Shown here one piece after another: positions 8,239 to 62,184 of a stretch of DNA of 64,000 nt. The notes under the pieces were generated by a model that was given only the letters and a program-made list of their open reading frames with translations, had not been told where the DNA came from and did not search any database. Every line of letters starts with the position of its first letter. The stretch's first letter is position 1. The position numbers and the translations under genes were made by a program. Location: assembly GCA_945871905.1 (NCBI GenBank), contig CAMBXL010000004.1:67375-131374 (forward strand), given 5' to 3'. The stretch is from Chitinophaga pinensis. GTDB taxonomy: Bacteria > Bacteroidota > Bacteroidia > NS11-12g > UBA955.

Positions 8239-8253
8239 ACTTAAACTGAATTA

Positions 8254-9429: not shown

Positions 9430-9431
9430 AA

Positions 9432-11366: not shown

Positions 11367-11385
11367 TAATAAAAAATCAAAAAAA

Positions 11386-12113: not shown

Positions 12114-12656
12114 TTAAAAAGGAGAAATAAACAAACTAAATGGCTGATGATTTTTGTCTTTTTCTGACAAAATTGGCTCTTTAATGGCCCAATCAATCCC
12201 AAATTCACTGTCATTCCACATTAAGCCACCCTCCGATTCAGGATGATAAACATCACTGCATTTGTATGAAAAAATAGTTTGATCAACTAATGGTGCAAAG
12301 CCATGGGCAAAACCAACAGGTACATAAAGCATCAAAAAGTTTTCTTCTGTTAATTCAATAGAAAAATGCTTGCCATAGGTTTTTGAATTTTTGCGAATAT
12401 CAATAACCACATCCTGTACCGCACCTTTAATCACTCTAACTAATTTTGCCTGTGCATGTGGTGGCGACTGAAAATGCATTCCTCTTACTATCCCCGTGTT
12501 TGACAATGACTGATTGTCTTGTATAAAATCATCATTAAACCCTAAATCATTAAAAATTTTTTGATTATAACTTTCGAAAAAATATCCCCTTGGGTCCTTA
12601 AATACTCTAGGTTTTATAACTTTTAATCCTTCTATACCGGTCTCTATGATTTCCAT
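12114..12656 (-). CDS. rfbC: dTDP-4-dehydrorhamnose 3,5-epimerase
   Basis: MEIIETGIEGLKVIKPRVFKDPRGYFFESYN...RGMHFQ is the RmlC cupin signature. Start placed at the internal Met, 4 codons into the ORF. Confidence 0.85.
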   Translation of the reverse strand: MEIIETGIEGLKVIKPRVFKDPRGYFFESYNQKIFNDLGFNDDFIQDNQSLSNTGIVRGMHFQSPPHAQAKLVRVIKGAVQDVVIDIRKNSKTYGKHFSIELTEENFLMLYVPVGFAHGFAPLVDQTIFSYKCSDVYHPESEGGLMWNDSEFGIDWAIKEPILSEKDKNHQPFSLFISPF

Positions 12657-12755
12657 TTTATTTGGCAAATTTACTTAAAGAATTAAACAAAGAAACACTT
12701 TATTACATTTTTTAAAGAAAGTTTTCTTTCCTGATTTTTAAATTTAACTTTGTGA

Positions 12756-13793
12756 GTGCCATTTAAAATGAAAAAAAATATATTTAAATCCCTTTTAATT
12801 TTAGCAATAGTTATTGTAATAACCTTTGGATATTTATATTTTATTGTCTTTTCACAATCTGCATTGGATATTAATCAATCTCATTATTTAAAAATCAACA
12901 AAGAGGATAATATTGAAACGATAAGCTCAAAACTAGAAAATGAGTTTGGACTTAAGCACCCTTTCCTATTTATGAAAATAGCTGAAAGAATGAATTTGAA
13001 AAAATTTATTAAAAATGGTAGATATACGATTGACCAAAACATGAATTTAATAGAACTCATCAAAGTATTGAGAAATGGAAAACTTCAAACCGTAAACTTC
13101 ACTATTAGACCCATGATAGATTTAGAATCTTTTGTTGAATATTGTGGAAGTGAATTGGAGCCGGATGCTGAAGTTTTTGCTTCCGTTTTAACAGATTCTT
13201 TATTTTTGGATTCAATCGGTTTTAACAAATCAAACATTTATTCATTAATACTTCCAGACACCTACAACCTTTATTGGCATACCAATGCAGAGGAATTATT
13301 ATTTCGATTAAAAAAAGAATATGATACTTATTGGAATGAAAAAAGAACTAAAAAAGCTGAAAATATTGGATTGACACCAATGGAAATTTCAATTTTGGCG
13401 AGTATTGTCTCCAAAGAATCCAATAAGGTTGATGAAATGCCAACAATAGCAGGCATGTATTTAAACAGGTTAAAGTTAGGAATGCCATTACAGGCTGACC
13501 CAACCGTTAAGTTTGCTTTAAATGACCCAACCATTAAGCGAATTTTAAAAGTCCATTTATTGTTAGAGTCTCCTTACAATACATACCTCAACAAAGGTTT
13601 ACCTCCTGGGCCCATTTGTGTACCAAGTAAACAATCAATAGAAGCGGTATTGAATAATCAGGAAAATGATTTTTTATACATGTGCGCAAAAGAGGATTTT
13701 AGCGGTTATCACAATTTCGCAATCAATTATAAAGAACATCAACTTAATGCACTAAGATACCAAAGTGCATTAAATCAACGCAATATAAGATAA
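12756..13793 (+). CDS. mltG: endolytic murein transglycosylase MltG (YceG-like)
   Basis: N-terminal TM anchor, then the YceG domain with YNTYLNKGLPPGPICVPS. Confidence 0.8.
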   Translation: MPFKMKKNIFKSLLILAIVIVITFGYLYFIVFSQSALDINQSHYLKINKEDNIETISSKLENEFGLKHPFLFMKIAERMNLKKFIKNGRYTIDQNMNLIELIKVLRNGKLQTVNFTIRPMIDLESFVEYCGSELEPDAEVFASVLTDSLFLDSIGFNKSNIYSLILPDTYNLYWHTNAEELLFRLKKEYDTYWNEKRTKKAENIGLTPMEISILASIVSKESNKVDEMPTIAGMYLNRLKLGMPLQADPTVKFALNDPTIKRILKVHLLLESPYNTYLNKGLPPGPICVPSKQSIEAVLNNQENDFLYMCAKEDFSGYHNFAINYKEHQLNALRYQSALNQRNIR

Positions 13794-15032
13794 TTAATTT
13801 TGAGATGCATTCAATCTGATGCTTAATTCAGCATCTATAGCATCTAAAAATTCTTGAGTGTATAAATAGTGTTCACCATGGTTAACTTTATTACCATGAA
13901 TACAAACAGCTAAATCTTTTGTCATTCTTCCACTTTCAACAACATCAACACACACTTTTTCTATAGTATGACAAAAGTTAATTAACGCATGATTGTTGTC
14001 TAATTTTCCTCTGAATTCTAATCCTCTTGTCCAAGCAAATATTGAAGCAATTGGATTGGTTGAAGTTGGTTTGCCAGCTTGATGGTCTCTGAAATGTCGC
14101 GTTACTGTTCCGTGAGCAGCTTCTGATTCCATTGTTTGTCCATCTGGAGTTACCAATACAGAGGTCATTAATCCTAAAGAACCAAAACCTTGTGCAACAG
14201 TATCAGACTGAACATCACCATCATAGTTCTTGCATGCCCATACAAAATTGCCATTCCATTTTAATGCAGAAGCAACCATGTCGTCAATTAATCGGTGTTC
14301 ATAAACGATTCCTGCTTCTTCAAATTTAGATTTATAATCTGCTAAATAAATTTCTTGAAAGATATCTTTAAATCTACCGTCATACTTTTTCAAAATAGTA
14401 TTTTTAGTAGAAAGATACAAAGGCCACTTTTTTTGAAGAGCTGTGTTAAAACATGAATGAGCAAATCCTTTGATTGATTCATCGGTATTATACATAGCAA
14501 GAGCTACGCCATCTCCTTTGAAATTATAAACTTCAAATTCTTGAATTGTCCCATCTTCACCTTCAAACTTTACTGTTAATTTTCCTTTACCTTTAGTTAC
14601 AAAATCCGTTGCACGGTATTGGTCACCAAAAGCATGACGTCCGATACAAATTGGGGCAGTCCAGTTAGGTACTAATCTTGGAACATTTTGACAAACAATT
14701 GGTTCACGAAATACAGTACCATCCAATATGTTACGAATGGTTCCATTCGGTGATTTCCACATTTGTTTTAAGTTGAATTCTTTTACTCTTGATTCATCAG
14801 GTGTAATTGTCGCACACTTGATGCCTACATTATATTTTTTTATAGCCTCAGCTGCATCAATTGTTACTTGGTCATTCGTCGCATCACGGTATTCCATACC
14901 CAAATCATAATATTTAATATCTAATTCTAAGTATGGAAGAATCAATTTATCTTTAATAAATTGCCATATTATTCGGGTCATTTCATCACCATCTAACTCA
15001 ACTATTGGATTTGCTACTTTGATTTTTGTCAT
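13794..15032 (-). CDS. icd: NADP-dependent isocitrate dehydrogenase (homodimeric, eukaryote-like type)
   Basis: [23 protein letters not shown]...[11 protein letters not shown] and a length of 412 aa match the type II IDH family. Confidence 0.9.
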
Positions 15033-36051: not shown

Positions 36052-36363
36052 ATGGAAGCGATAATTCAACGTTTGGAAACAATAAAGTTAAAGATTGCAT
36101 CAATTCACTCTAGCAACAGTGAATTATCCGCTATTATTAAACAAAAGAACAAAGAAATTGAACGCTTAAAAAAGTTAGTTGAAATTCAAAATAACACTAT
36201 CAAAGAGCAAGAATACAAACTAAAAGTAAAAAGTATTGCCGAACAAGCACTCTCAAATGATGATGAATCAAGTCAATCGTTAAAAAAACGTGAATTGAAA
36301 TTCAAAATTAATGAAATGCTTAAAGAACTTGACAAACTATCTCATTTAATACATCAATCCTAA
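36052..36363 (+). CDS. small coiled-coil protein (ZapA/ZapB-like?)
   Basis: 103 aa, almost entirely heptad-repeat helix. Starts 9 bp after pheT. Confidence 0.4.
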   Translation: MEAIIQRLETIKLKIASIHSSNSELSAIIKQKNKEIERLKKLVEIQNNTIKEQEYKLKVKSIAEQALSNDDESSQSLKKRELKFKINEMLKELDKLSHLIHQS

Positions 36364-36836
36364 TGAAACACTTTTCAACACACTCTAAAATCTGGATTTA
36401 CTTTTCTGGCGCCCCAATTAAAGGAGAAAAAAAAGATTTTGTTTCTTCAAAACTAGAGCATTTTTGCAAAGATTGGACAGCACACAATCAGCAACTTAAA
36501 TCTTCATTTGATATTATCGATGAACATTTCATAGTGCTGTGTGTAGATGAATCTCAAAATACAGCTACAGGTTGTAGTATTGATAAAAGCGTTCATGTTC
36601 TTAAAGAAATATCTAACTTTTTGAATGTTAATCTTTTCGATAAAATGTTACTTCCCTATCACAATGGAAATGGTATAGAATATTGTCATTTTCAGAACAT
36701 TTCTAACTTGTATAAAAACAGCACAATCACTGATGACACCCATTTCTATAATTTAACAATCAATTTTTTGTCAGACTTACAAACAGAATTTAAATTGCCA
36801 TTAAAACAACATTGGTTGAGTAAACACATACACTAA
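36363..36836 (+). CDS. hypothetical protein
   Basis: 157-aa ORF whose start overlaps the stop of the upstream gene. No recognisable motif. Confidence 0.4.
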   Translation: MKHFSTHSKIWIYFSGAPIKGEKKDFVSSKLEHFCKDWTAHNQQLKSSFDIIDEHFIVLCVDESQNTATGCSIDKSVHVLKEISNFLNVNLFDKMLLPYHNGNGIEYCHFQNISNLYKNSTITDDTHFYNLTINFLSDLQTEFKLPLKQHWLSKHIH

Positions 36837-36838
36837 AA

Positions 36839-37414
36839 ATGCAATCAAACTACAGAAACTACAACACTTGGTTCAGACTTACCCATTGGTTATTAGCCTT
36901 AGGGATTGTCTTTATCTCATTAACTATATTTTTGCGATTAAATTGGATGAACAAAGATGTAATGTCCACAATATTGCAAACTGAATTGGCTAAAATTGAC
37001 ATCGTTATTGAAAAAGATGCAAGCATAAAAATAGCTAAAAAAATAAGAAACGAAATGTGGAAATGGCATGTTTACGCAGGCTATTTTCTGGTATTTGTTT
37101 TTTTACTCCGTTTATTAATGGCAAGTATCGGTAAAATGATTTTTCTAAATCCTTTTCAAGATGGATTAACAATGAAACAAAAGTTTCAAGCTTGGGTTTA
37201 TCTAAGTTTTTACTTTCTAATGTTTATTTCACTCTTAACCGGATTATTGATTGAATTTGGACCTGATTACTTGCATGAAACCATGGAAACTATTCACAAA
37301 CTGTCTTTGTATTATTTAATAAGTTTTATTGTTTTACATTTTGGCGGACTATTGATTGCTGAAAAAGTAGAAAAACAGTCTTTGGTTTCAAAAATGATTG
37401 CCTCAAAAGAATAA
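36839..37414 (+). CDS. cytochrome b561 / Ni-Fe hydrogenase b-type cytochrome family membrane protein
   Basis: Four TM helices with conserved His in TM1 (LTHWLLALG) and TM2 (WHVYAGY), as in the bis-heme cytochrome b family. Confidence 0.55.
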   Translation: MQSNYRNYNTWFRLTHWLLALGIVFISLTIFLRLNWMNKDVMSTILQTELAKIDIVIEKDASIKIAKKIRNEMWKWHVYAGYFLVFVFLLRLLMASIGKMIFLNPFQDGLTMKQKFQAWVYLSFYFLMFISLLTGLLIEFGPDYLHETMETIHKLSLYYLISFIVLHFGGLLIAEKVEKQSLVSKMIASKE

Positions 37415-39629: not shown

Positions 39630-39737
39630 AAAGTTGGTGTGGAAAAAAAATCTCACAACTTTCTGAAATATTTAATTCTATTTTATATATAATTGCATTA
39701 ATTATACCAAAAAATACAAATTTTGGGAGTAACAAAT

Positions 39738-41426
39738 ATGAAAAGACGTTCATTTTTAAATCAAATTGTAAGCGAAAAAAAACCGCTTGTAGCCACTCCG
39801 ATTGAGAAATTTCAAAATCAAAAACTTCCTGACCATTTGGAGCTAGGGACTGCATCAGCTGCTCCATTCACAGGGACTTGGGATGAAAAAAAACTAAAGC
39901 ATTTATTAAGAAGGGCCTTGTTTGGCTATTCAAAAGCTGATTTAGATTTTTTTAAAACCAAATCAATGAGCGATGCGATGGATTATATAATGGATATTCC
40001 AACAACACAACCGCTTCCTCCTGTTAATGCATACAACAATGCTAGAGAAACCGACCCTAATATTCCCGCGGGTTCTACATGGGTCAATGGGCCTGATGAT
40101 GTTAATTTCATAAGACAAAGAAGAGATTCAATTTACGCTTGGCACATGAAATTAATCGTTAATTCTGAAAGGCATATTAGGGAAAAAATGACACTTTTCT
40201 TGCACAATCATTTTGCAACAGAAACGGAAGCAATTCCCTCTCCTATTAATGCTTATAATCACCATAAAATTTTAAGAGAAAATGCTTTAGGAAATTTTAA
40301 AGACCTCATTAAAAAGATTACAATTGATTCTTCAATGTTGTTTTATTTAAATGGCTACGTTAATACCAAAACAGCACCTGACGAAAATTATGCAAGAGAA
40401 TTAATGGAGTTGTTCACTCTTGGCAAATCGGCTGAAACTCAATACACAGAAAATGATGTAAAAGCAGCCGCAAAGGTACTTACAGGATGGAGTATTGACT
40501 ATAATACATTTGGTTCTTTTTTCAACTCCCAAAAACATGATACAGGTTCCAAAACCTTTTCATCATTTTACAACAACAAAGTAATTAGTGGGCAAACTGG
40601 TGTTAATGGAGCCAATGAAACAGATGAACTCATCAATATGATTTTCACCAAAGAAGACATTATTGCTAGGTTTATCGTTAGAAAATTATACCGTTATTTC
40701 GTCTATTATGTTATTGATTCAAGCATAGAAACCAATGTTATTATTCCGTTGGCTAACATATTCAAGCAAAATTGGGAGTTAAAACCGGTTGTTACTGCTT
40801 TATTAAAAAGTGAGCATTTTTACGACGATAGAAACATCGGCTGCATGATTAAAAACCCTGTAGATGTGATGACTTCTCTCTGTAAATATTTTAAGGCCTC
40901 CTTTCCAAATTCCACAATTGAACAAGAGTACAGTTCATATTACACGTTATGGGGTGCTATTGCGCTTACAGGCATGAATGTTGGAAATCCTCCAAATGTT
41001 TCAGGATGGCCTGCCTATTATCAAACACCTCAATTTCATCAACTTTGGCTCAACTCAGATACACTTCCCAAACGTATATCATACACAGTTGCAATGATTT
41101 CCAATGGGATAGACATTAGAGGCGGTGGTAAAATTACTGCCGATGTTATTGCATTTGCCAAACAATTTCCTAATCCCGAGAATCCTGATACTTTAATTCA
41201 AGAAACCATCAATTTACTTTATGCAATGGACTTATCAACAGAAACCAAAAACAAATTAAAGGAAAGTACTTTATTATTTGGATTAAAGGAGAACTTTTAC
41301 TGGACCAATGCTTGGAACGACCACATTGCCAATCCAACGGATAATGATAAGAAAAATATAGTTGTATACGGATTAACTATGATGTTAAAATATTTACTTG
41401 ACCTAGCTGAAAATCAATTGGCTTAA
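39738..41426 (+). CDS. DUF1800 family protein
   Basis: Twin-arginine-like leader MKRRSFLNQI and the DUF1800 pattern (LLRRALFGYS, MTLFLHNHFAT, YLNGYVN, ARELMELFTLG). Confidence 0.75.
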   Translation: MKRRSFLNQIVSEKKPLVATPIEKFQNQKLPDHLELGTASAAPFTGTWDEKKLKHLLRRALFGYSKADLDFFKTKSMSDAMDYIMDIPTTQPLPPVNAYNNARETDPNIPAGSTWVNGPDDVNFIRQRRDSIYAWHMKLIVNSERHIREKMTLFLHNHFATETEAIPSPINAYNHHKILRENALGNFKDLIKKITIDSSMLFYLNGYVNTKTAPDENYARELMELFTLGKSAETQYTENDVKAAAKVLTGWSIDYNTFGSFFNSQKHDTGSKTFSSFYNNKVISGQTGVNGANETDELINMIFTKEDIIARFIVRKLYRYFVYYVIDSSIETNVIIPLANIFKQNWELKPVVTALLKSEHFYDDRNIGCMIKNPVDVMTSLCKYFKASFPNSTIEQEYSSYYTLWGAIALTGMNVGNPPNVSGWPAYYQTPQFHQLWLNSDTLPKRISYTVAMISNGIDIRGGGKITADVIAFAKQFPNPENPDTLIQETINLLYAMDLSTETKNKLKESTLLFGLKENFYWTNAWNDHIANPTDNDKKNIVVYGLTMMLKYLLDLAENQLA

Positions 41427-41438
41427 ATTAAACGAAAC

Positions 41439-43010
41439 ATGAAAAGAAAAGAATTTTTAAAAAAAGCGGCTCTTGCAGGTGTAACGCCTTTCATTATTGA
41501 TGGTCTTAGTTTTAAATCACATGCTGCAACTCCTATGCTTAAAGCTATCGCGAAAGCCTCAGCTCAAAATGGAAGAGTGTTTGTTTTGATACAACTTAAT
41601 GGTGGTAATGATGGGTTAAATACCGTTATTCCTACTGACCAATATTCTAATTTAAGTTCACTCAGAAGCAATGTGTTGATTCCTGAATCCAAAGTTTTAA
41701 AGCTTAATGGCATAAATGGCACCGGTTTACATCCTTCTCTTGCGGGACTTCAAACGTTGTTCAATGAAGGTAAGTTAAATATTGTTCAATCTGTGGGATA
41801 TCCAAATCCTAATTTTTCACATTTTAGGTCAACCGATATTTGGCATACAGCAAGTGACAGCAGTCAATTCCTCACATCAGGTTGGGCTGGTCGTTATAAC
41901 CAGCACTTACACCCCGATTTTCCAGAAAATTACCCTAACTCCGAAAGTCCCGACCCATTAGCAATTTCTATAGGTTACACAGTTTCAACCATGTTAATGG
42001 GGCAAACCACCAACACGGGTATGGCTATTTCTGACCCTAAATCTTTTTATGAATTAGTATCAGGAACAGTAGATCCAGCTCCTAACACCCCTATGGGACA
42101 TGAGTTAACATATGTTAGACTAATTTTACAACAGACCCAAAGTTACAACACCACTGTAAAAAGTGCAGCCTTAAGTGCCACAAATAAAGCAACTTATCCT
42201 AACAATAATTTAGCAAATCAGTTGAAAATTGTAGCTAACCTAATAGCGGGTGGATTAACAACACCAATTTACACAGTTAGTTTGGGAGGATTTGACACAC
42301 ATGCTAATCAAGTTTCTACTACAGGAGGTAAGGAAACAGGGGCTCATGCCAATTTGTTAAAAATAGTTTCAGACTCCATTTCGGCGTTTCAGAAAGATTG
42401 TGAATTATTGGGTGTTGCAGACCGTGTAGCAGGCATGACTTACAGTGAATTTGGACGACGTATAAAAAGTAATGACAGCAATGGAACAGATCATGGAGCA
42501 GCAGCACCATTAATAGTTTTTGGAACTCAAGTTAACCCTACGGTTTTGGGAAGTAACCCTCAAATACCTAGCAATGTTACCGTTAATGACAATATACCAA
42601 TGCAATATGACTTTAGACAAGTTTATGCCAGTGTTTTACAAGATTGGTTTCAAACCAACGCCTCAGTTGTTCAGAAAGATATTTTATTAAAATCATTCAA
42701 TACGATTGCCATCTTTAAACAACAAGTAAGCGTTAAAGACAAATACAAAATTAGTAAACTTCAATTGTCTCAAAATTATCCTAACCCATTCAAATCAAAA
42801 ACAACAATTGATTTTTATTCACCAGGGGGAGATGTTGAGTTAAAACTCTACAACCATCAAGGTCAATTGATATTAACCCTTGTTGACGAATACAAAGAAG
42901 AAGGTGTACATCATTTTCTTTTAGATGGTGAAGGTTTGGCCAATGGAAATTATTATTATCAATTGGTGACACCTATCGGTCAATTGAGCAAAACTATGAT
43001 TAAATTATAG
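41439..43010 (+). CDS. DUF1501 family protein with C-terminal T9SS sorting domain
   Basis: TAT-like leader MKRKEFLKKAALAG and a sulfatase-like DUF1501 core (DHGAAAP). The C-terminal about 80 aa (LSQNYPNPFKSKTTIDF...LKLYNHQGQLI...GNYYYQLV) is a type A Por/T9SS C-terminal domain. Confidence 0.75.
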   Translation: MKRKEFLKKAALAGVTPFIIDGLSFKSHAATPMLKAIAKASAQNGRVFVLIQLNGGNDGLNTVIPTDQYSNLSSLRSNVLIPESKVLKLNGINGTGLHPSLAGLQTLFNEGKLNIVQSVGYPNPNFSHFRSTDIWHTASDSSQFLTSGWAGRYNQHLHPDFPENYPNSESPDPLAISIGYTVSTMLMGQTTNTGMAISDPKSFYELVSGTVDPAPNTPMGHELTYVRLILQQTQSYNTTVKSAALSATNKATYPNNNLANQLKIVANLIAGGLTTPIYTVSLGGFDTHANQVSTTGGKETGAHANLLKIVSDSISAFQKDCELLGVADRVAGMTYSEFGRRIKSNDSNGTDHGAAAPLIVFGTQVNPTVLGSNPQIPSNVTVNDNIPMQYDFRQVYASVLQDWFQTNASVVQKDILLKSFNTIAIFKQQVSVKDKYKISKLQLSQNYPNPFKSKTTIDFYSPGGDVELKLYNHQGQLILTLVDEYKEEGVHHFLLDGEGLANGNYYYQLVTPIGQLSKTMIKL

Positions 43011-43141
43011 TCGTTACTGAAACTATGTCTTTATTTGTTACATTTACCTCAAAATTTTAAGGTCAAAATGACTTAAAAATTGACATTTTTTCAGTATTTT
43101 ATTGTGTGGGTTAATATTTGAGAACTATTAATCAAAAACGT

Positions 43142-45739
43142 ATGAACATTAATAAATTCACAATAAAAGCCCAAGAGTGCATTCAATCAGCACAACAATT
43201 GGCATTTGAAAATAACCATCCTACCATTGAAAATGCTCACATATTAAAGGGCATATTGGAAAATGACGATGAAATCTGCTCCTATCTTTTCAGTAAAGTT
43301 GGGGCAAATTTAAACCGTGTTAAAACAGCAAACGATGCCATTTTAAAAGGATTTCCTAAAGTCAGTGGTTCTAGCAATCAAACACTTTCTAATTCCAGTT
43401 CAAATACATTAATGTATGCAGAGAAAATGATGAAAGAAATGGGAGATGAATATGTATCTGTTGAGCATCTTATTCTATCGTTAATAAACAATAATGACAA
43501 TGTTGGTAACCTAATGAAAGATGCAGGCATCAAATTGAGTGATGCCAAAAAAGCCATTTTAGAACTTAAGGGAGACAGTAAGGTTAGCTCTCAAGGTGGT
43601 GGAGAGCAATACAATGCATTAAAAAAATATGGACTAAATCTAAACCAAATGGCATCGCAAGGAAAACTTGACCCTGTCATTGGACGCGATGAAGAAATCA
43701 GAAGAGTCCTTCAAATTTTAAGTCGTAGAACCAAAAATAATCCTGTACTGATTGGCGAACCAGGAGTAGGTAAAACAGCTATTGCCGAAGGATTGGCAAG
43801 AAGAATAGTCCAAGGAGATGTGCCTGAAAACTTAAAGTCTAAAACTATATTCAGTTTGGATATGGGTGCATTAATTGCAGGTGCGAAATACAAAGGGGAA
43901 TTCGAAGAGCGATTAAAAGCAGTTGTAAACGAAGTCATTAAAAGCAATGGTGAAATTATTTTATTTATAGATGAAATACACACCTTAGTAGGAGCTGGAA
44001 AAAGTGAAGGCGCAATGGATGCTGCCAATATATTAAAACCTGCTTTGGCAAGAGGAGAACTTAAATCGATAGGCGCAACTACCCTTGCCGAATATCAAAA
44101 ATATATTGAAAATGACAAAGCATTAGAAAGACGTTTTCAAAAAGTAATGGTCGAAGAACCTAATATTCAAGATGCCATTTCGATTTTACGTGGATTAAAA
44201 GAACGATACGAAGTCCATCACAAAGTAAGAATAAAGGACGAAGCCATAATCAATGCAGTTGAATTATCGGCTCGTTATATCAGCGACCGTTTTTTACCCG
44301 ATAAGGCTATTGACTTATTAGATGAAGCAGCCTCAAAACTCAGAATTGAAATAGATTCATTGCCTGAGGAATTGGACGAAATGAACAGGAAAATAATGCA
44401 ATTAGAGATTGAGAGAGAAGCCATTAAGAAAGAAAACGACAAAGACAAGTTAGAAAAGCTAAACATAGATTTAGCCAATTTGAATGAAAACCGCTCGACT
44501 TTGAATGCCCGTTGGAAAAGAGAAAAAGAGGTAGTTGAGGCTATTCAAACATCAAAGGGACAGATTGAACAATTCAAATACGAGGCAGACCAAGCGGAAA
44601 GAAATGGAGATTTTGGAAAAGTAGCTGAGTTGAGATATGGAAAAATTAAGGAAGTAGAAAACCAAGTCATTGAACTACAATCAAAGTTAGCCGAAATACA
44701 AAGCGACAAACCTATGGTAAAAGAAGAGGTTGACGCTGAGGATATTGCTGAAGTGGTGAGCAAATGGACTGGTATTCCTGTGAACCGAATGTTACAAAGT
44801 GAACGAGAAAAACTGATTCATTTGGAAGCCGAATTACACCAAAGAGTTGTTGGACAAGATGAAGCTATAGCTGCCATTTCAGATGCGGTTAGAAGAAGTA
44901 GAGCTGGATTACAAGACCCAAAAAGACCAATAGGATCGTTTATATTTTTAGGAACAACAGGGGTAGGTAAAACAGAATTAGCCAAAGCATTGGCATCCTT
45001 TTTATTCAATGATGACAATGCCATGGTTAGAATAGACATGAGTGAATACCAAGAAAAACACACTGTAAGTCGATTGATTGGAGCGCCTCCAGGATATGTG
45101 GGATATGATGAAGGCGGACAATTAACCGAGGCAGTTAGAAGAAGACCATACTCTGTAGTGTTGTTAGATGAGATAGAAAAAGCACATCCAGATGTGTTTA
45201 ATATTTTGCTTCAAGTGTTAGATGATGGTAGATTAACGGATAACAAAGGACGTACTGCCAACTTCAGAAATACAATAGTGATTATGACTAGTAATATCGG
45301 TTCTCATATTATTCAGGAAAACTTTGAATTAATAAACGATGAGAACAAACTTGATGTTATGGCTAAAACTAAAAGTGAAGTTTATCAAGCATTAAAGAAT
45401 ACAATTAGACCAGAGTTTTTGAATAGAATTGATGAAGTCATTATGTTTGAACCTTTAAGTCGAGAACACATCCATGAAATCGTTAAAATTCAAATGAATT
45501 CAATAACCAAACAGCTTAAAGAGAGTGGTTTCGAAATAGAAATAACTGAAGAGGCTATTGATTGGTTGGCTCAATTGGGATACGACCCGCAATTTGGAGC
45601 GCGTCCAATGAAGCGAGTGCTTCAAAAAAGAGTATTAAATGAATTGTCTAAGAAAATTTTGATGAATGAAATCAAAAAAGAGGACGTAATTGTTGTAGAT
45701 GCAATTGAGAATCAGATTATTTTCAGAAATAAACTTTAG
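43142..45739 (+). CDS. clpB: ATP-dependent chaperone ClpB
   Basis: Two AAA+ modules ([15 protein letters not shown] and [15 protein letters not shown]) with a long middle coiled-coil domain. About 865 aa from the second Met. Confidence 0.9.
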
Positions 45740-45740: not shown

Positions 45741-47096
45741 CTAAGGTTCTAAACTGATGTTTTCATCTCCATCCTCGTAATTCATATAAGTGATAATAAA
45801 CTGAAGCATTTCATCGGTGGTGCGCATACTAGCTCCACCGTTTTCAAGTCTTTCGGCAATCATTTGTGGTGGTTTATTGGGATTATTTGGATTGGCTGAG
45901 GTATTATCAAAAGAGGCATTTACAATAATTCTACTGCCTTTAGGAATTTTAACAGGCTTTTTAAAAGTGTAGAAATATTGCCATTGGAAGCGCCAATTAG
46001 GAATTTCAATTAAGGGAATTGTGTCACCATTAGGTTTAACTGCAAAAGCTTTAAATGACTTACCGATTAAGTGCATGTGTGGATTAATCGTAAGGACAGA
46101 AATGGAATTATAAATGGTAATTTCACTAACATGATTGCTTATTTTATTGGGAGGTACAACCAAAGGTGGAATTATAGGGGACACACCATTTGTCCCCAAC
46201 ATTAGCTCATAAGTATTTCTTTTAATGGGTTTATCGGTAAAATACAAATACAATATAGAACTATCTGTTAGTCGTTTAGAGGAAGGTCCATAATGAATGT
46301 CATTGCCTACGAAAGCCCCATTTTTTTTGAGCACAAACCCTCCTATTCCATCAGGATATTTAACACCAAAAGAACCTGGAAGATAGTTTACCGCAGAATG
46401 AATCCTTTCAGGAGTTGTTTGGTCGATATTCAATAATTTAAGTTGAGCAAATTCATTTACAAAGTTAGGAGATTCAATAGAAGCAACTCTATTTCCATCA
46501 AAGGGATTGGTTAAATCATTAAAACCCAAATAATGACCATTGAAATGATGGACAACCTTTTTTTGTCCGGGAATAAATTCTACAGCTTTAACAATTCTTT
46601 CTTTATCAATTTGATATGGAATTTTAACAGTTAAAAACTGGTCTAACTGATTGGGCAATATAGCAATTGGCGGTAATGAAATAACCATATCAGGTTTACC
46701 TAAAACAGATTGATAAACTGGAAAATCAGGTGTTTTTAACCCCGAAGTATCTCCTGATTTAGATCCAGATTTATACCAATCTTGAATGAGTTGTATGTCA
46801 TTTTCCGAAAGAACACGTTCATTAATAAAGTGAGAATACTGAGGATTTGCAGGCCATGGTGGCATATATCTAGATTGGGTAACAAATGCTACCATTTTCG
46901 CTCTTTTTTTCACATCGTGATAAGTTAGTAACGAAAAAGGTGCACCACCATTAGGATTATGACAAGGAGTACAATTTTGATGAATAATAGGTGCTATATC
47001 CTTAGAAAATGTAATGTCATTACATGAAAAAAAGACACTACATAGGCTCAATAAAACACCCGACAGCTTTGGTTTGGACATCCTTAATAGGTTCAT
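45741..47096 (-). CDS. secreted c-type heme domain fused to a copper type II ascorbate-dependent monooxygenase-like domain
   Basis: Signal peptide. CTPCH (a CxxCH heme c motif) followed by RYMPPWPA. Downstream are VHHFNGH and NPHMHLIG His clusters plus later Met residues, resembling PHM/DBH CuH and CuM sites. Confidence 0.5.
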   Translation of the reverse strand: MNLLRMSKPKLSGVLLSLCSVFFSCNDITFSKDIAPIIHQNCTPCHNPNGGAPFSLLTYHDVKKRAKMVAFVTQSRYMPPWPANPQYSHFINERVLSENDIQLIQDWYKSGSKSGDTSGLKTPDFPVYQSVLGKPDMVISLPPIAILPNQLDQFLTVKIPYQIDKERIVKAVEFIPGQKKVVHHFNGHYLGFNDLTNPFDGNRVASIESPNFVNEFAQLKLLNIDQTTPERIHSAVNYLPGSFGVKYPDGIGGFVLKKNGAFVGNDIHYGPSSKRLTDSSILYLYFTDKPIKRNTYELMLGTNGVSPIIPPLVVPPNKISNHVSEITIYNSISVLTINPHMHLIGKSFKAFAVKPNGDTIPLIEIPNWRFQWQYFYTFKKPVKIPKGSRIIVNASFDNTSANPNNPNKPPQMIAERLENGGASMRTTDEMLQFIITYMNYEDGDENISLEP

Positions 47097-47568
47097 TTTT
47101 CATCAGCGAATTTAAGGCATTTGATAAATAATCTATAAATATTTTTGATTGAATGATTCCCAATTCTGTAAATCGGTCGTCCAACAAACCGCTGTAAACA
47201 ATTCTTTTATTTTGAGCAACTACTACTTGAGGGGTTACATCAGGGTTAAAGGCATTGTAAATTTCCAATTGTGAATCAATAATAATTTGTGATGATTTAA
47301 TTGAGTCGGAATTAAGGAATAACAGGCGACTTTCCATGTTTTGATCGTCATAAAAAATATAATAAAATCTCACAAGAGGATACTGTTTTTGGTAAAAAGA
47401 GAATCTACCTACCAGTCTGTTACAAAGCGGACATTCTGTATTGAGGAAAAAGTAAACTGAAGTAGAATCAGACCATTCATAAGGCTGACCATTAGCTAAT
47501 TTAGTTTCAGGCTTATGGCATGACAATAGCAAAAAAAACAATAAAAGATAAAAAAAAGATTTAGGCAT
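47038..47568 (-). CDS. thioredoxin-fold lipoprotein (CxxC)
   Basis: Lipobox LLLSCHK and a CPLC redox motif in a TlpA/ResA-like context. Its 3' end overlaps the start of the downstream heme/Cu protein ORF. Confidence 0.45.
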   Translation of the reverse strand: MPKSFFYLLLFFLLLSCHKPETKLANGQPYEWSDSTSVYFFLNTECPLCNRLVGRFSFYQKQYPLVRFYYIFYDDQNMESRLLFLNSDSIKSSQIIIDSQLEIYNAFNPDVTPQVVVAQNKRIVYSGLLDDRFTELGIIQSKIFIDYLSNALNSLMKNEPIKDVQTKAVGCFIEPM

Positions 47569-47604
47569 TAAACTATTTCACATTAACTTCGTCAAAAGTA
47601 AAGA

Positions 47605-48165
47605 TTGAGAAACAAAGAAACAATTTCGGACAATGATTTATTCAAAGAATTTATGGATAGCGGCAAAGCAAACCATTTATTCAATGAAATTATAAACCGA
47701 TTTAAGTTTAAAATATATCACCAAGCCAGAAGGATTGTTCTTATCCATCAGGATGCCGATGAAGTTTGTCAATTGGTTTTTATTAAGTTGTGGAAACATG
47801 CAGACAGTTTTAAATTTCAAAGTCAGTTAAGCAGCTTTATTTACAGAATAACCTACAATGAATCAATCAGTTTACTAAAAAGGAATCAGAAGCACTACAA
47901 TATTGATGATTATTTGGACAAAGATGGGCATTATCAGTCGATGGTTACACAAGGAGAAACGATCTCTTCCGATGAAATTTTAAAAAATCTGATTTCCGCG
48001 ACTTTAACTTTGCCAGAAAAACAAAGGCTAGTTTTCAATTACCGCTACTTTGATGAATTGAGTTACAAAGAAATAAGTGACATAACAGGAACAAGTGAAA
48101 GCGCTTTAAAAGCGAGTTATCATTTTGCAGTAGAAAAAATCAAGAAAATAATCAATCCAGATTAA
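47605..48165 (+). CDS. RNA polymerase sigma-70 factor, ECF subfamily
   Basis: Region 2 (VFIKLWKHADSF) and region 4 (YKEISDITGTSESALKASYHFAVEKI) of ECF sigma factors. 186 aa. Confidence 0.8.
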   Translation: MRNKETISDNDLFKEFMDSGKANHLFNEIINRFKFKIYHQARRIVLIHQDADEVCQLVFIKLWKHADSFKFQSQLSSFIYRITYNESISLLKRNQKHYNIDDYLDKDGHYQSMVTQGETISSDEILKNLISATLTLPEKQRLVFNYRYFDELSYKEISDITGTSESALKASYHFAVEKIKKIINPD

Positions 48166-48180
48166 ACTTTTACTAAACGA

Positions 48181-48597
48181 ATGAGTCAAAATACAATCAA
48201 CATGAAAGAAAACAAACCAATATTAAAATTTGAATTTAATACCACACCAGAGTATTTCAATCAGTTGAATGATGTAATATTAAATCGCTTAGAAACCGAA
48301 AATAATAACACGAGTAAACTATTTAAAATTAGATTAATACAATGGTCAGTTGCTGCCTCTTTTGTTTTAATGATTGGAATTGCTTTTTATAGCTACAACT
48401 CTCAAAATACAGCTCCATTAGTAAGCATAAACAACATAGAAACGAGTGAAATAGAATCCTATTTAGAAACGAATGAAATAAGTGATGAAGACCTGATAGA
48501 ATCACTTGACATCTCAGAGCTTTCATTAAACGAAGAAATACAATACAACTATATTTTAGAAGATGTTGACGACGATTTACTTTATCAATACGAATAA
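48181..48597 (+). CDS. putative anti-sigma factor (single-pass membrane protein)
   Basis: 138 aa with one central TM helix, immediately downstream of the ECF sigma gene. Acidic C-terminus. Confidence 0.4.
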   Translation: MSQNTINMKENKPILKFEFNTTPEYFNQLNDVILNRLETENNNTSKLFKIRLIQWSVAASFVLMIGIAFYSYNSQNTAPLVSINNIETSEIESYLETNEISDEDLIESLDISELSLNEEIQYNYILEDVDDDLLYQYE

Positions 48598-48609
48598 TTA
48601 ACAGACAAA

Positions 48610-49107
48610 ATGAACATACAAAATTACTTTAAAACAATGGCATTAATGGGCTTAATAATGTTAAGCACTTTGAATTTAATGTCCCAAAAAGGACAAGGTC
48701 CAAAAAAAGAAGACAAAGGTGCCAAACATGAAAAAATGAAAGTCCTATTTAGGCAGTATCTCAATGATAAATTAGCATTAACAGAAACTGAGAAAAAAGG
48801 ATTTTGGCCAATTTTTGATGACTATAAAAAGAAAGAAAAAGAACTAAAGGATTCCTTTCGCAAAAAATACAAACCCAACAGCATTCCATTTATGGACGAC
48901 AAGCAAGCGGAAGCCTATCTCAATGATTTTTTTCAATTAAATGAGAATATTAATCAACTTTACAAGGAAACTATTGTAAAACTAAAAAAAGTAATTCCTA
49001 TTAAAAAAGTGGCGATGATTCCACATACAGAAAGGGAATTCAAAAAGGAGTTGTTAAAGAAAATGCGAGAAAAAGGTCAAGCACCTCCTCCACCTGACGA
49101 AGAATGA
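48610..49107 (+). CDS. periplasmic lysine-rich helical protein (Spy/CpxP-like?)
   Basis: Signal peptide. Highly charged helical sequence with a Pro-rich C-terminus (QAPPPPDEE). Third gene of the ECF module. Confidence 0.35.
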   Translation: MNIQNYFKTMALMGLIMLSTLNLMSQKGQGPKKEDKGAKHEKMKVLFRQYLNDKLALTETEKKGFWPIFDDYKKKEKELKDSFRKKYKPNSIPFMDDKQAEAYLNDFFQLNENINQLYKETIVKLKKVIPIKKVAMIPHTEREFKKELLKKMREKGQAPPPPDEE

Positions 49108-59826: not shown

Positions 59827-60408
59827 TTAAAGTGTTTTATTTAAATTTAAATCCTTTAGATCTTTTCTTTTAAGTTTTTTATTGTTAACCAAGAGTATTT
59901 TAAAATCATACTTTGAAATCTTGTAAGATTTACCGTGCAATAAAATTGCACTTCCTATAAGTTGTGGAGCAGACATTACGAAAGAAACAATACCATAAGC
60001 AATTGCAATTGTATCATACTTACTTGAAGTTGAAACCAGAAATGAACCCAATATAAAAAAAACGCTACCAGAAAACAAGCTAGGGTATCCAACAATTTTA
60101 TTGTAAAGCCCTGTATGTCTTATTTTAGTGATTTCAGAAATCAGAAAAGTGTCTTGTTTTAAATTGTGTGGATTAACTAATTTTATAATGCTATCATTAA
60201 TAAAAAGTAATTTCCCCTTGAATGATTTCCCAGCTGAATCAAATATTTCAATTTTTTTATTTTCGCGAAATACAATACTATACCTATGATTGGCTTTTGA
60301 TTGTATAATTAAATAATGTAGGAGTGAATCAGCGGCATTGTCTTGTCCAGCTAATGTAAGTACCGAAAGTAAAAAAAGAAATAAACTTAGTTTTTTAAAC
60401 ATAGGCAA
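59827..60408 (-). CDS. secreted protein with two C-terminal TM helices, unknown function
   Basis: Signal peptide MPMFKKLSLFLFLLSVLTLAGQ, a beta-rich N-domain, then two hydrophobic helices and a Lys-rich tail. Confidence 0.45.
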   Translation of the reverse strand: MPMFKKLSLFLFLLSVLTLAGQDNAADSLLHYLIIQSKANHRYSIVFRENKKIEIFDSAGKSFKGKLLFINDSIIKLVNPHNLKQDTFLISEITKIRHTGLYNKIVGYPSLFSGSVFFILGSFLVSTSSKYDTIAIAYGIVSFVMSAPQLIGSAILLHGKSYKISKYDFKILLVNNKKLKRKDLKDLNLNKTL

Positions 60409-60664
60409 TAATACAGATTTGTATAAATAAAAAAAATACTTTGATTTACGATTCTCTGTAATTCTGATATTAATAATTACTTCTTTGTTTTAGAAAACTT
60501 ATATTTTAAAAAAGAAATTAAAGATATTGAATTGTTTTTCATAAAACAAAAGTAGTTGAAAACACAATCCATTTGCAATTATTGTAGTTTCTTGATAGAA
60601 ATATTGGTTTGAAAGCGGTAACGATGCAAATAAAAAAATCGACACAAATTATCTTACCTTCGTT

Positions 60665-61654
60665 TTAAAGTTCATTTATAGTATCTGTTTCTATTGATTG
60701 ATTCTCCAATTTTGGTATATTTTCAAGTTTTTGATTTAAATAGTTTTCTTTAGTCATATAAGACAAATTGACCTTATAATTCAACCAAGTAGTAGTAATT
60801 ATTTGCTTTGAATTACGGTTCAAGTAAGGGCGATATTTCAAACTGAATTCTAAAGATTTTTCAAAACTATTACGTATTAATTTAGACATATAAGTCTTAT
60901 ATTCATTTGAATTTTCAATTGAAGTCATATCAGTAATATTATACTTCCAACCTCGACTAATTTTGATTATAATGCCGTTTTTTTCAATAATAATTGGTTC
61001 AAATTCTTTAGTTTTATTTTTAATGGTATAAATCAATTTTTCATCCCCAGGCAATATGTCAATACTTTTATCAATTAATAAACTTGGCAATTTAAACTTT
61101 TTACCATTGTAATCAAATTCTAGCACGGGGTCATAATTATCATTATATCTTGCAATTTCACTCTCTTTTATATTTTCGAAATAAGTTTCAAATTTTACAC
61201 CATATTTTTCAATTAATTTTTTACCAATACAGGTAATCGCAGTGCCATTTATTATAGTTTTTGCCCCTAATTGTAATCCTTCTAAATCAATAGAAACCAA
61301 TTGGTTTTTTTCGAAAACTGGTTTGATTTTATACTTGTTAAAATTATCACCAGAACTCTTTGATGTGCCTCCACAAGATGGAAATAAATAATATATTCCA
61401 TCCGATTGGCATTCTACCTTTCCTTTATCCACTAAAATATTAGTAGCATTATTAAATTGAAATTCAGACATATTTACTTTATAGTCTAAAAAAAGTACGG
61501 GACCCAAATTTTTATTTTCAATGGAATCAATTTCAATTGTACTTTCATTCATAACATCGAGTAATTCAGTTTCTTCCTTAATTGACGCTTTATCTGGATT
61601 TTGGCATGATAATAACAGTAAGCAAAGTCCAATTGTATTAATAAATATTTTCAT
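60665..61654 (-). CDS. lipoprotein of unknown function
   Basis: Lipobox LLLLSCQNPDK. 329 aa with no recognisable motif. Confidence 0.45.
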   Translation of the reverse strand: MKIFINTIGLCLLLLSCQNPDKASIKEETELLDVMNESTIEIDSIENKNLGPVLFLDYKVNMSEFQFNNATNILVDKGKVECQSDGIYYLFPSCGGTSKSSGDNFNKYKIKPVFEKNQLVSIDLEGLQLGAKTIINGTAITCIGKKLIEKYGVKFETYFENIKESEIARYNDNYDPVLEFDYNGKKFKLPSLLIDKSIDILPGDEKLIYTIKNKTKEFEPIIIEKNGIIIKISRGWKYNITDMTSIENSNEYKTYMSKLIRNSFEKSLEFSLKYRPYLNRNSKQIITTTWLNYKVNLSYMTKENYLNQKLENIPKLENQSIETDTINEL

Positions 61655-61803
61655 TTAATTATATTTTTTCTAATGGACAAATATATCGGTATTTTCTTAT
61701 TTTATCGAAAGTTACAAACTATAACATAGCAATAAAGCACACTCATTTATTAAGATAATGCTTTCATGTTTTTCTAAGTTCGTCATCTTTATGACGATTA
61801 ATT

Positions 61804-61833
61804 AAAAAAACCTCACAATGGAGGTGTTTTTCT
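61804..61833. terminator. bidirectional rho-independent terminator
   Basis: aaaaaaa-cctc-acaatg-gagg-tgtttttc. The minus strand reads acctccattgtgaggt plus T7, downstream of the 108-aa gene. Confidence 0.45.
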
Positions 61834-61857
61834 TATTTAATAAAACCAAACGTTTTA

Positions 61858-62184
61858 TTAATTGCAAAAAGTACAATTCTTGTTAAGTAGTTTTTTAATT
61901 TTTCTTTTTAAATTATCAGGTATATTTACAAACTCTGATTCAATAGAATTAAAATCTCTATTAATATTCAATACAACCTTACCATTAACGGACAAAAGGT
62001 CGCTTTCCACATCTAGTAATAAAGTTTTATACAACTCTATTACTTTCCTCAAAACTTTTAAGGTATAAATATTAGATATTTCACATCCGCTTATTCCATC
62101 ATAATTCACCTCTACTATGTCATACAAATTGTCAATTTTGTGACAATCATACCCTATTTTTGAATTAGTAATTGAGTCATACAT
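61858..62184 (-). CDS. hypothetical small protein
   Basis: 108-aa ORF with no signal peptide and a C-terminal CTFCN. Located in the AT-rich islet. Confidence 0.35.
   Translation of the reverse strand: MYDSITNSKIGYDCHKIDNLYDIVEVNYDGISGCEISNIYTLKVLRKVIELYKTLLLDVESDLLSVNGKVVLNINRDFNSIESEFVNIPDNLKRKIKKLLNKNCTFCN

Follow-up and report, generated by a model that had tools for sequence, protein, structure and literature searches.

We found that a two-gene operon in an uncultured freshwater Bacteroidia bacterium (assembly GCA_945871905.1, contig CAMBXL010000004.1) encodes a lipoprotein that joins a monoheme cytochrome c domain to a two-copper core of the PHM/DBH type, and that this enzyme is coupled to a second, thioredoxin-fold lipoprotein, here called the partner. 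Judged from its sequence, the enzyme appears to be a new heme-wired, thiol-partnered variant of the PHM/DBH class. The domain architecture alone, a heme c domain and a PHM-like core with a thioredoxin-fold partner, is very likely. Positions refer to the window, that is, the whole 64-kb stretch of DNA that was analysed; the features of the operon are as follows.

45741..47096, minus strand: enzyme gene, a 451-aa lipoprotein with a monoheme cytochrome c domain and a PHM/DBH-like two-copper core (sequence)
47081, minus strand: alternative enzyme start at M6, chosen by some gene callers (446-aa forms)
47022..47096, minus strand: enzyme signal peptide and lipobox (...VFFS-C25; sequence), C25 being kept in at least 90% of 38 homologues
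46767..47009, minus strand: cytochrome c domain, about aa 30-110 (CTPCH and axial Met)
46959-46973, minus strand: heme attachment motif C42-T-P-C45-H46, residues 42-46 (sequence)
46863-46865, minus strand: axial M78 in MPPWPA; RYMPPWPA is residues 76-83 (sequence)
46197..46694, minus strand: PHM-like N-terminal jelly-roll domain, about aa 135-300, with the putative electron-transfer copper site CuH (profile alignment)
46545-46550, minus strand: predicted CuH ligands H183/H184, aligned to PHM H107/H108 ('vHHMLLF') and to DBH
46293-46295, minus strand: predicted CuH ligand H268, aligned to PHM H172 ('LQVHYG') and to DBH
45744..46196, minus strand: PHM-like C-terminal jelly-roll domain, about aa 301-451, with the putative O2-binding copper site CuM (Pfam Cu2_monoox_C over aa 327-401)
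46071-46079, minus strand: predicted CuM ligands H340-M-H342, aligned to PHM H242/H244 ('HTHHLGK')
45807-45809, minus strand: predicted CuM ligand M430 in TTDEM, aligned to PHM M314 ('SSDEMC')
47038..47568, minus strand: partner gene, a 176-aa thioredoxin-fold lipoprotein (sequence)
47422-47433, minus strand: partner active site C46-P-L-C49 (CPLC at 46-49)
47056-47061, minus strand: partner C-terminal G170-C171, invariant
47038..47096, minus strand: overlap of the partner and enzyme genes, 59 nt, or 44 nt with the M6 start (sequence)

The partner gene is the upstream member of the operon and the enzyme gene lies downstream on the same strand; the two are probably translationally coupled, as a sequence-only reading of this DNA had suggested from their overlap. 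The 59-nt overlap was confirmed and is kept in related loci, with an identical one called in 13 of them. The reading frames have to overlap, since one stretch of DNA codes both for the conserved enzyme signal peptide and for the partner's conserved GCFIE C-terminus. The signal peptide, CTPCH, RYMPPWPA, the HH and HxH motifs, CPLC and the 36-bp gap to a divergent sigma factor gene all lie where that reading had placed them.

The same reading had described a secreted heme c/PHM-like two-copper protein, and fold searches, profile-to-PDB alignment, a Pfam match and residue conservation all support this description. The AF2 model of the enzyme is confident (pLDDT 87.7, pTM 0.80), and its top 30 Foldseek matches in the PDB are all PHM or human DBH, with E values from 3e-13 to 1.5e-9; the two-domain jelly-roll catalytic core of the PHM/DBH/TBH class is present. 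Identity to PHM and DBH is about 15-20%, and searches of PDB sequences with the single sequence or the close family left the copper core unmatched, with only the wide-family profile reaching PHM/DBH. A profile of 80 diverse relatives matches DBH with an E value of 5.7e-11 and PHM with one of 1.1e-8. In the wide-family profile alignment, the HH, H, HxH and M of the enzyme fall on PHM H107/H108, H172, H242/H244 and M314, so that the CuH His-His...His and CuM His-x-His...Met sets align residue for residue, and the motifs xHH, HY, PHxHxxG and DEM are shared. PNGase F, a carbohydrate-binding module and a viral double-jelly-roll capsid were rejected as functional readings, with far lower fold scores and no copper ligands; the double-jelly-roll fold common to PHM and such proteins explains these matches (PMC8812541).

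Curated family models gave a more mixed picture. The C-terminal region scores above the cut-off of the copper monooxygenase model Cu2_monoox_C (PF03712), albeit marginally (24.3 bits against 23, 1.3 bits over; E 2.3e-5), and this model is matched by 53 of the 80 relatives at E <= 1e-3. The N-domain model Cu2_monooxygen (PF01082) does not match the enzyme even at E <= 1; it matches 23/80 relatives at E <= 1e-3, and P0236 scores 42 bits against a cut-off of 30. The cytochrome c segment noted earlier fell below the cut-off of the curated cytochrome c HMMs (Cytochrome_CBB3, 17.5 bits against 27) and was without a match in NCBIfam, although CxxCH and a distal Met in a small helical domain, the criterion for a class I-type c cytochrome, are both present. 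The PROSITE signature for copper type II monooxygenases is H-H-M-x2-F-x-C; this signature and the conserved disulfides are missing from the enzyme, which reads HHFNGHYL and has no Cys in its copper core. The peptidylglycine-binding residues of PHM, R240/N316/Y318, are also absent, their places being taken by N338/Q432/I434 and being variable across the wider family; because of this replacement, peptidyl-glycine is presumably not the substrate.

Conservation supports the proposed cofactor sites. C42, C45, H46, M78, H183, H184, H268, H340, H342 and M430 do not vary among 38 homologues that share 49-66% identity, and the same ten predicted cofactor residues are near-invariant in the wide family, with 125/127 to 149/149 aligned among 150 cluster representatives. 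Within this set, the putative CuH ligands H183, H184 and H268 are kept in 126/127, 125/127 and 142/143 representatives, and the putative CuM ligands H340, H342 and M430 in 149/149, 149/150 and 143/144. As a predicted ligand set, the cofactor motifs occur far above chance. The earlier reading had compared HH-x3-H (HHFNGH, residues 183-188), H-x-H (HMH, 340-342) and further downstream Met residues (424 and 430) with CuH and CuM. Profile alignment and conservation bear out this arrangement, except that the third CuH ligand is predicted to be H268, not H188; the His clusters are likewise conserved apart from H188, which, with M424, is kept solely within the close subfamily. R231, H233, N237, D266, E297, M299, N338, M424 and Q432, together with N303, show little or no variation within the close family, and the first nine vary among the 150 representatives. 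Such subfamily-specific invariant polar residues look like a specificity pocket.

The partner, which carries a lipobox (LLSC17) and a cis-Pro (P113), is an exported protein of the thioredoxin fold that matches no Pfam or NCBIfam model significantly. Its CPLC motif had been singled out earlier; the motif is present and the thioredoxin fold is borne out, but what the homologues keep is not the CxxC pair. Of 53 adjacent homologues, 16 have Ser or Ala in place of the second Cys, and many partners from a T9SS-secreted sister branch have Ser or Thr there; the conserved cysteines are C46 and the invariant C171. Like ResA, CcmG/DsbE, TlpA, MPT53 and the SMc02350 (3u5r)/2ywi/2cvb group, the partner combines a thioredoxin fold and extra N-terminal elements with export or lipid anchoring, an active-site Cys-Pro at the start of helix 1 and a cis-Pro; it differs from ResA, CcmG and TlpA in that its second CxxC cysteine is dispensable and its C-terminal Gly-Cys invariant. 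Fold scores against peroxiredoxins are about 10.5, lower than those against TlpA-like proteins, and the Ser/Thr often found 2-3 residues before C46 is spaced differently from the PxxxTxxC of peroxiredoxins. Peroxiredoxins also have a conserved Arg; within the close family of the partner, conservation of R132 is about 90%. A Sco1/SenC-type copper chaperone was rejected as the partner's identity, the Sco-type CxxxC and conserved distal His being absent. With 2ywi and 2cvb the partner has in common a C-terminal 'IGC(S/T)I' motif, and it is an uncharacterised SMc02350/2ywi-type thioredoxin-fold protein, from a group that we take to be the CDD family 'PRX_like1'. Our literature search found nothing on the function of TTHA0593.

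Synteny in most related loci and natural fusions support the functional coupling of enzyme and partner that the earlier reading had proposed. In at least 57 of 81 loci the partner gene is the direct same-strand neighbour of the enzyme gene, and in 70/81 the two lie no more than 6 kb apart; for the T9SS-secreted sister branch, 24 of the 50 loci with adequate coverage have it next to the enzyme gene. Two separate lineages, moreover, encode partner and enzyme as one fused protein. A marine Bacteroidota lineage encodes a Trx-cyt c-PHM fusion (a cluster of 17 members) without a separate partner gene nearby, and a gene-calling artefact was rejected here, the same 627-aa protein being seen on 24 contigs from several sources. 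A single contig of a 58%-GC genome carries at least four such fused modules, and none of them lacks a Trx domain of its own. Clustering of neighbouring genes across 160 loci revealed no conserved partner besides the thioredoxin-fold gene, and therefore synteny yields no clue to the substrate.

The family is very large, with at least 6,400 clusters when sequences are grouped at 50% identity, and its members are labelled 'hypothetical' or 'cytochrome c' in databases. About half of the sampled representatives belong to the T9SS-secreted branch, which carries PKD, Ig and CHU_C-type add-ons; its enzymes have a T9SS export domain, whereas their partners have a Sec signal only. In the searchable literature, the PHM family is treated as eukaryotic (PMC8812541). 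A periplasmic heme-copper-thiol module had been said to correspond to no named pathway, and in agreement with this we found no literature on bacterial cytochrome-c/PHM-like proteins.

How might such a protein work? We infer metal and heme occupancy, the direction of electron flow, monooxygenase as opposed to oxidase chemistry and the exact job of the partner, and we lean, with modest confidence, towards an oxygen-activating enzyme in which electrons pass from heme to CuH to CuM and a thioredoxin-fold partner is obligate. The operon product would be a periplasmic, lipid-anchored redox enzyme whose tethered monoheme cytochrome c domain, with His46/Met78 ligation, replaces ascorbate as the one-electron entry point. 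The heme would feed CuH (H183, H184, H268), CuH would reduce CuM (H340, H342, M430), and O2 bound at CuM would be used to hydroxylate a C-H bond of an extracytoplasmic substrate. The partner may work through Cys46 and the C-terminal Cys171. In the reading that we prefer, its dithiol would recharge heme and copper with two electrons at each turnover and would then be restored by the thiol-reducing pathway of the envelope. PHM-type turnover needs exactly two electrons and would therefore match the supply of one dithiol/disulfide couple. We propose the partner as electron donor only tentatively. Direct transfer from a two-electron thiol to a one-electron heme is unusual, and the heme c could equally be reduced by respiratory cytochromes, so that a thiol donor would be unnecessary. 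The only cysteines of the mature enzyme are the lipid-anchor Cys25 and the two that bind heme, and any thiol chemistry between the two proteins must therefore centre on the heme domain.

This restriction also speaks for a possible, if somewhat unlikely, alternative in which the enzyme is the same but the partner is a dedicated maturation factor that acts transiently in the periplasm, with catalytic electrons coming from respiratory c-type cytochromes. Such a factor might be ResA/CcmG-like, keeping C42-x-x-C45-H reduced so that heme can be attached covalently, or Sco/TlpA-like, delivering Cu(I). The plain Sec signals of T9SS-branch partners, which lack an export domain, fit a protein that can act only before export of the enzyme: the two may meet only in the periplasm, where maturation fits better than a steady-state electron donor. 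However, the CxxC that ResA, CcmG and TlpA need is replaced by Ser, Ala or Thr in a large minority of partners, with a distal C-terminal Cys invariant instead, and neither the CxxxC of Sco nor its His is conserved. Every fused enzyme module has its own Trx domain, even where four lie on one contig, which is unexpected for a factor acting in trans. In the known Trx-domain fusions Neisseria PilB (Trx-MsrA/B) and QSOX (Trx-Erv), moreover, a Trx-fold module beside or before a redox enzyme exchanges electrons with it as a catalytic partner; these proteins share the Rosetta-stone pattern with ours and differ in their catalytic modules.

A further alternative, which we consider quite unlikely, is that the copper core does not hydroxylate a substrate and is instead an oxidase or peroxidase passing electrons from thiols or cytochromes to O2 or H2O2 (such as a periplasmic sulfhydryl oxidase, or a peroxide scavenger with a peroxiredoxin-like partner), a heme-copper electron carrier or a copper store. 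The loss of all PHM substrate-binding residues would be consistent with this, as would the lack of a conserved neighbour hinting at a substrate or pathway and the conservation of one active-site Cys and a distal Cys, as in atypical 2-Cys peroxiredoxins. Nonetheless, the exact His3 and His2Met sets, which in PHM and DBH are tuned for O2 activation and C-H hydroxylation, are under strong selection in thousands of proteins together with the inter-domain architecture. The pocket-like subfamily residues and the peroxiredoxin fold scores, which lie below the TlpA-like ones, also argue against it. For the monooxygenase reading that we prefer, the points on the other side are the PHM substrate-binding residues, which are not kept, the unmatched Cu2_monooxygen and the marginal Cu2_monoox_C.

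The sequence-only reading had also offered the ECF trio as a plausible regulator of the operon. The surrounding features are the following.

47605-48165, plus strand: ECF sigma gene (Pfam Sigma70_r2 and r4_2; NCBIfam sigma70-ECF, 87.7 bits)
48181-48597, plus strand: gene for a membrane anti-sigma-like protein of the ECF trio (context, outside the module)
48610-49107, plus strand: gene for a periplasmic protein of the ECF trio, 47605..49107 (context, outside the module)
47569..47593, plus strand: ECF-type promoter TAAAC-N16-CGTC, facing away from the operon, 11 nt before the ECF sigma start (motif)
47593..47600, minus strand: TACTTTTG, a match to the -7 box TAnnTTTG about 25 nt upstream of the partner ATG, candidate operon promoter (sequence)

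The distance is as claimed, with exactly 36 bp between the partner gene and the ECF sigma gene (47605, plus strand), but regulation is unsupported, and it is highly improbable that the operon is an envelope-stress effector targeted by the divergent sigma/anti-sigma/periplasmic trio. The short gap speaks for such control, as does the fact that 10 other loci, whose proteins are about 60% identical, have kept the arrangement. The ECF promoter also overlaps the partner start codon and the putative -7 box, so that some cross-talk is conceivable, with occlusion likelier than activation. However, of 80 related loci only 11, every one from the closest clade, have the trio beside the operon. In each ECF-adjacent locus with such a trio, TAAAC-N16-VGTC stands once in front of the sigma gene and once in front of the anti-sigma gene, both copies reading into the ECF operon; the 16-nt spacer is the same throughout, and in no locus does the motif face the Trx/enzyme operon. 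The operon instead has a TAnnTTTG box, the primary-sigma -7 consensus of Bacteroidetes known from Bacteroides and Flavobacterium promoters, at the equivalent position in 6 of 9 independent ECF-adjacent lineages. Fused and T9SS-branch members, for their part, sit amid unrelated housekeeping genes. An E. coli-type promoter and terminator scan of the locus was uninformative.

Several known systems share with our preferred reading the logic of placing a one-electron heme beside copper, which lets an O2- or substrate-activating copper receive electrons with no need for a diffusible reductant. Cytochrome-c-fused copper nitrite reductases are among them, as are subunit II of caa3-type oxidases (cyt c-CuA; PMC5668878), and the cytochrome domain of cellobiose dehydrogenase, which serves the copper of LPMO (lytic polysaccharide monooxygenase; PMC11725913). 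Their copper folds (cupredoxin, histidine brace) are unrelated and they have no thioredoxin-fold third component, so the comparison is one of working principle only. PHM and DBH themselves differ from the enzyme described here, which is bacterial, lipid-anchored and periplasmic, has a predicted N-terminal covalent heme c domain, and lacks a DOMON domain and disulfides; its reductant is presumably heme or thiol, not ascorbate, and it has an obligate thioredoxin-fold partner.

The PHM/DBH class of ascorbate-dependent copper type II monooxygenases makes amidated neuropeptides and noradrenaline in animals, and how the electron crosses the solvent gap of about 11 Å between CuH and CuM is still debated. 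A bacterial, Cys-free, single-chain version with a built-in heme would allow electron transfer to be triggered and followed optically and may thus offer a tractable model. Our work would also provide a first functional context for the uncharacterised SMc02350/2ywi group, flags thousands of 'hypothetical' and 'cytochrome c' proteins as candidate oxidative enzymes, and shows how bacteria could run PHM-type chemistry in an ascorbate-free compartment. More speculatively, and with considerable doubt, the family may be an unrecognised class of self-sufficient extracytoplasmic copper monooxygenases in which a thioredoxin-fold dithiol and heme c replace ascorbate, with the T9SS branch attacking extracellular biopolymers or peptides oxidatively in Bacteroidota, in an LPMO-like manner. 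If this is true, the oxidative enzyme toolkit would be a new one, with the lipoprotein form described here as its periplasmic representative.

The sequence-only reading had described a secreted heme c and PHM-like copper protein encoded beside a thioredoxin-fold (Trx) lipoprotein, and this structural description proved right, strengthened by fold, metal ligands and synteny. The window, which is low in GC (~32%), derives from an uncultured freshwater member of the Bacteroidia. The best public match to the enzyme gene lies on a Bacteroidia MAG contig, L001, with 97% protein identity and identical gene order. The two genes are:

45741-47096, minus strand: enzyme gene, 451 aa
47038-47568, minus strand: partner gene, 176 aa

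Every motif attributed to these proteins is present: CTPCH (residues 42-46), RYMPPWPA (76-83), HHFNGH (183-188, the HH-x3-H cluster), HMH (340-342), Met 424 and Met 430 in the enzyme, and CPLC (46-49) in the partner. The signal peptide and lipoprotein calls also hold, with lipoprotein-type signals opening both the enzyme (…FFSC25) and the partner (…LLSC17). The genes overlap as described, by 59 nt, or by 44 nt with M6 as the enzyme's start, the choice made in 446-aa database forms. This overlap is structural, because the same DNA codes the partner's conserved C-terminus (AVGCFIEPM) and the enzyme signal peptide. At the other end of the enzyme gene, ClpB (43118-45739, plus strand) converges on its stop codon (45741-45743, minus strand) with 1 base between stops; a terminator scan found no terminator-like hairpin near this point, and the two transcripts must therefore run into each other or end within the opposite gene.

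An AlphaFold2 model of the enzyme, built from an alignment of 38 homologues, is confident (pLDDT 87.7, pTM 0.80) and places an N-terminal helical domain before two beta-sandwich domains. In a Foldseek search of the PDB, each of the top 30 matches was a rat PHM or a human DBH structure (E 3e-13 to 1.5e-9), with viral double-jelly-roll capsids and PNGase F ranking far below. Homology to PHM/DBH is detectable at the sequence level too, as judged from a profile of 80 diverse family members (DBH, E 5.7e-11; PHM, E 1.1e-8). The expected match to copper monooxygenase models was found with Pfam Cu2_monoox_C, which covers residues 327-401 at 24.3 bits (cut-off 23). Pfam cytochrome c models gave only sub-threshold scores on the enzyme.

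The profile aligns the family motifs vHH, qiHY, PHmHllG and tdEM with PHM H107/H108, H172, H242/H244 and M314, respectively. The predicted ligands are thus H183/H184/H268 for CuH, the electron-transfer copper site, and H340/H342/M430 for CuM, the O2-binding site. Together with C42, C45, H46 and M78, these six residues are invariant across the 38 close homologues, and all ten are (near-)invariant among 150 representatives of 50%-identity clusters and 80 full-length ones. Of the PHM-like sites first proposed, H183/H184, H340/H342 and M430 stand, whereas conservation of M424 and of H188, the last residue of HH-x3-H, is confined to the close subfamily. H188, H233, M299 and M424 (approximately 46533-46535, 46398-46400, 46200-46202 and 45825-45827), all (near-)invariant in the lipoprotein subfamily and not in the wider family, could form an extra metal or substrate site.

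The substrate side differs from PHM. PHM R240, N316 and Y318, which we take from established structures to be the peptidylglycine-binding residues, are replaced by N338, Q432 and I434, positions not conserved family-wide, and the copper core lacks any cysteine and thus all of PHM's disulfides. A polar set conserved in the lipoprotein subfamily (R231, H233, N237, D266, E297, M299, N303, N338, M424 and Q432), of which all nine residues other than N303 vary among the 150 representatives, provides candidates for a specificity pocket. The enzyme therefore shares fold and copper ligands with the PHM/DBH class but lacks the PHM substrate residues, disulfides and N-domain HMM match, and we class it as a new heme-wired, thiol-partnered bacterial variant of that class rather than a PHM/DBH orthologue.

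Neither Pfam nor NCBIfam gave a significant match to the partner. Its model is a confident thioredoxin fold (pLDDT 86.7), and its weak sequence matches, 2ywi and 2cvb, share a C-terminal IGC(S/T)I. Although the predicted CPLC motif is present, 16 of 53 adjacent homologues have Ser or Ala in place of its second cysteine, and partners in the sister branch secreted by type IX secretion (the T9SS branch) carry C-x-I-[C/S/T] there. C46-P47, the cis-proline P113, Y125, G127, D130 and G170-C171 are (near-)invariant. The functional pair is thus most likely C46 and C171, and not the CxxC.

Across 81 loci (80 genome loci and the window), the partner gene lies within 6 kb of the enzyme gene in 70, directly upstream on the same strand in 54 and directly downstream in 3. 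No other neighbour is conserved in these loci; MutS, TonB-dependent receptors, kinases and acyltransferases each occur in some loci and not in others. The partner is also the sole conserved neighbour in 80 T9SS-branch metagenome loci (35/80; 24/50 with at least 700 nt on each flank). Moreover, Trx, cytochrome c and PHM-like core have been fused twice independently. A 627-aa marine Bacteroidota protein (a 17-member cluster, read on 24 contigs from several sources) joins a lipoprotein signal, a Trx-like domain (ECPIS…GCFIE, sharing 30% identity with the partner in the window), cytochrome c and the core; it is surrounded by housekeeping genes, with no separate partner gene. The second fusion is in a 58%-GC genome, L165 (GCA_054033915.1, JBPNMT010000094.1), with at least four Trx-cytochrome c-PHM modules on one contig, in tandem at 4171-13926, two of them within one 1,251-aa ORF with a hydrophobic segment between. 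Synteny and fusions together indicate that the three modules form an old, obligate unit.

The analysis establishes the cofactor architecture; the remaining mechanism would be carried over from PHM/DBH by analogy. In those enzymes single electrons enter at CuH, O2 is bound at CuM, and each hydroxylation takes two electrons. Here the tethered heme c would replace ascorbate as electron entry to CuH, and the enzyme would hydroxylate a periplasmic substrate. We favour a role for the partner as redox partner, because a dithiol would supply exactly the two electrons needed, because every module in the fusions has retained a Trx domain of its own, and because the known Trx fusions are catalytic partners. 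Nearly as good is a role as maturation factor: the mature enzyme has no cysteines besides the lipid-anchor Cys25 and the two that bind heme, the partner is closest among characterised folds to cytochrome-maturation reductants, and partners of exported T9SS enzymes remain in the periplasm.

The divergent genes, separated from the partner gene by the 36-bp gap originally reported, encode a clear ECF-type sigma factor (Pfam, NCBIfam) and, after it, an anti-sigma-like protein with a single membrane pass and a periplasmic protein. This trio had been put forward as regulator of the Trx/enzyme operon, and the comparison does not support that role. Of 80 loci, only 11 have the trio beside the module, and these all belong to the closest clade. 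Every ECF-adjacent locus with this trio type carries TAAAC-N16-(C/G/A)GTC twice, and the spacer is invariably 16 nt:

47569-47593, plus strand: ECF-type promoter motif copy 1, located 6-13 nt (in most loci 11) before the start codon of the sigma gene
48162-48187, plus strand: ECF-type promoter motif copy 2, lying across the stop codon of the sigma gene, immediately before the anti-sigma gene

Both occupy the same positions in L001-L005, L007, L008, L010, L014 and L067 and point into the ECF operon, which suggests that the sigma factor is autoregulated and that the anti-sigma and periplasmic genes have a promoter of their own; none of these loci has such a motif directed at the Trx/enzyme operon. 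A third match to TAAAC-N16-VGTC lies at 11717 on the minus strand. TAnnTTTG, the consensus of the Bacteroidetes primary-sigma -7 box, occurs on the opposite strand beside the ECF -10 element in 6 of 9 lineages, so the Trx/enzyme operon is probably transcribed by the housekeeping sigma. Since the two promoters overlap back to back, interference is possible; activation is not indicated. The partner's N-terminus in related loci is M-K-(K/R)-F-(N/K), coded ATG AAA AAG TTT AA, where the window lineage has GTG AAA TAG (47569-47583, minus strand, just upstream of the ATG at 47568); these bases include an in-frame stop, and the start has moved four codons downstream. The divergent ECF promoter also uses this stretch as its -35 element, a possible reason for its conservation.

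Elsewhere in the window, a DUF1800/DUF1501 pair lies at 39723-43010 (plus strand), the DUF1501 protein having a C-terminal tail that resembles a T9SS sorting domain (Por_Secre_tail, 26.4 bits, slightly below the cut-off of 27). A prokaryotic cytochrome b561 gene (Ni_hydr_CYTB, 81.6 bits; 36363-37414, plus strand) lies 8 kb from the module, after a 157-aa ORF that has no Pfam match; this b561 differs in fold from the unrelated eukaryotic b561 serving DBH/PHM, and it was not seen in other loci. The lowest-GC stretch (60001-62000; 25.7% versus ~32% overall) holds a 329-aa ORF (60665-61654, minus strand) with no Pfam match.

Finally, the family is large. A word-indexed search returned >3,300 proteins at 90% clustering, nearly all unnamed or called cytochrome c, and the copper core alone, used in an exhaustive HMM search, gave 6,411 clusters (50% identity) at E ≤ 1e-3 and 3,479 at E ≤ 1e-10. 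We found no paper on this family; a 2022 double-jelly-roll survey gives the PHM family as eukaryote-widespread (PMC8812541). Nearly every full-length member has one CxxCH. Among 80 representatives, 53 match Cu2_monoox_C, 23 the N-terminal Cu2_monooxygen, and 39 have a C-terminal sorting domain for T9SS (examples in the family are P0213, P0258, P0274 and P0312), with PKD, Ig, EF-hand, Kunitz or InlB-repeat domains on some. Four of the T9SS-branch metagenome loci (L081-L160), such as L081, have an HMA-type (GVCGDC) metal-binding protein and a TonB-dependent receptor nearby. These counts place the window enzyme in the lipoprotein branch of a large cytochrome-c/PHM-like superfamily whose second main branch is secreted, and whose T9SS-branch members would be exported heme-copper enzymes.
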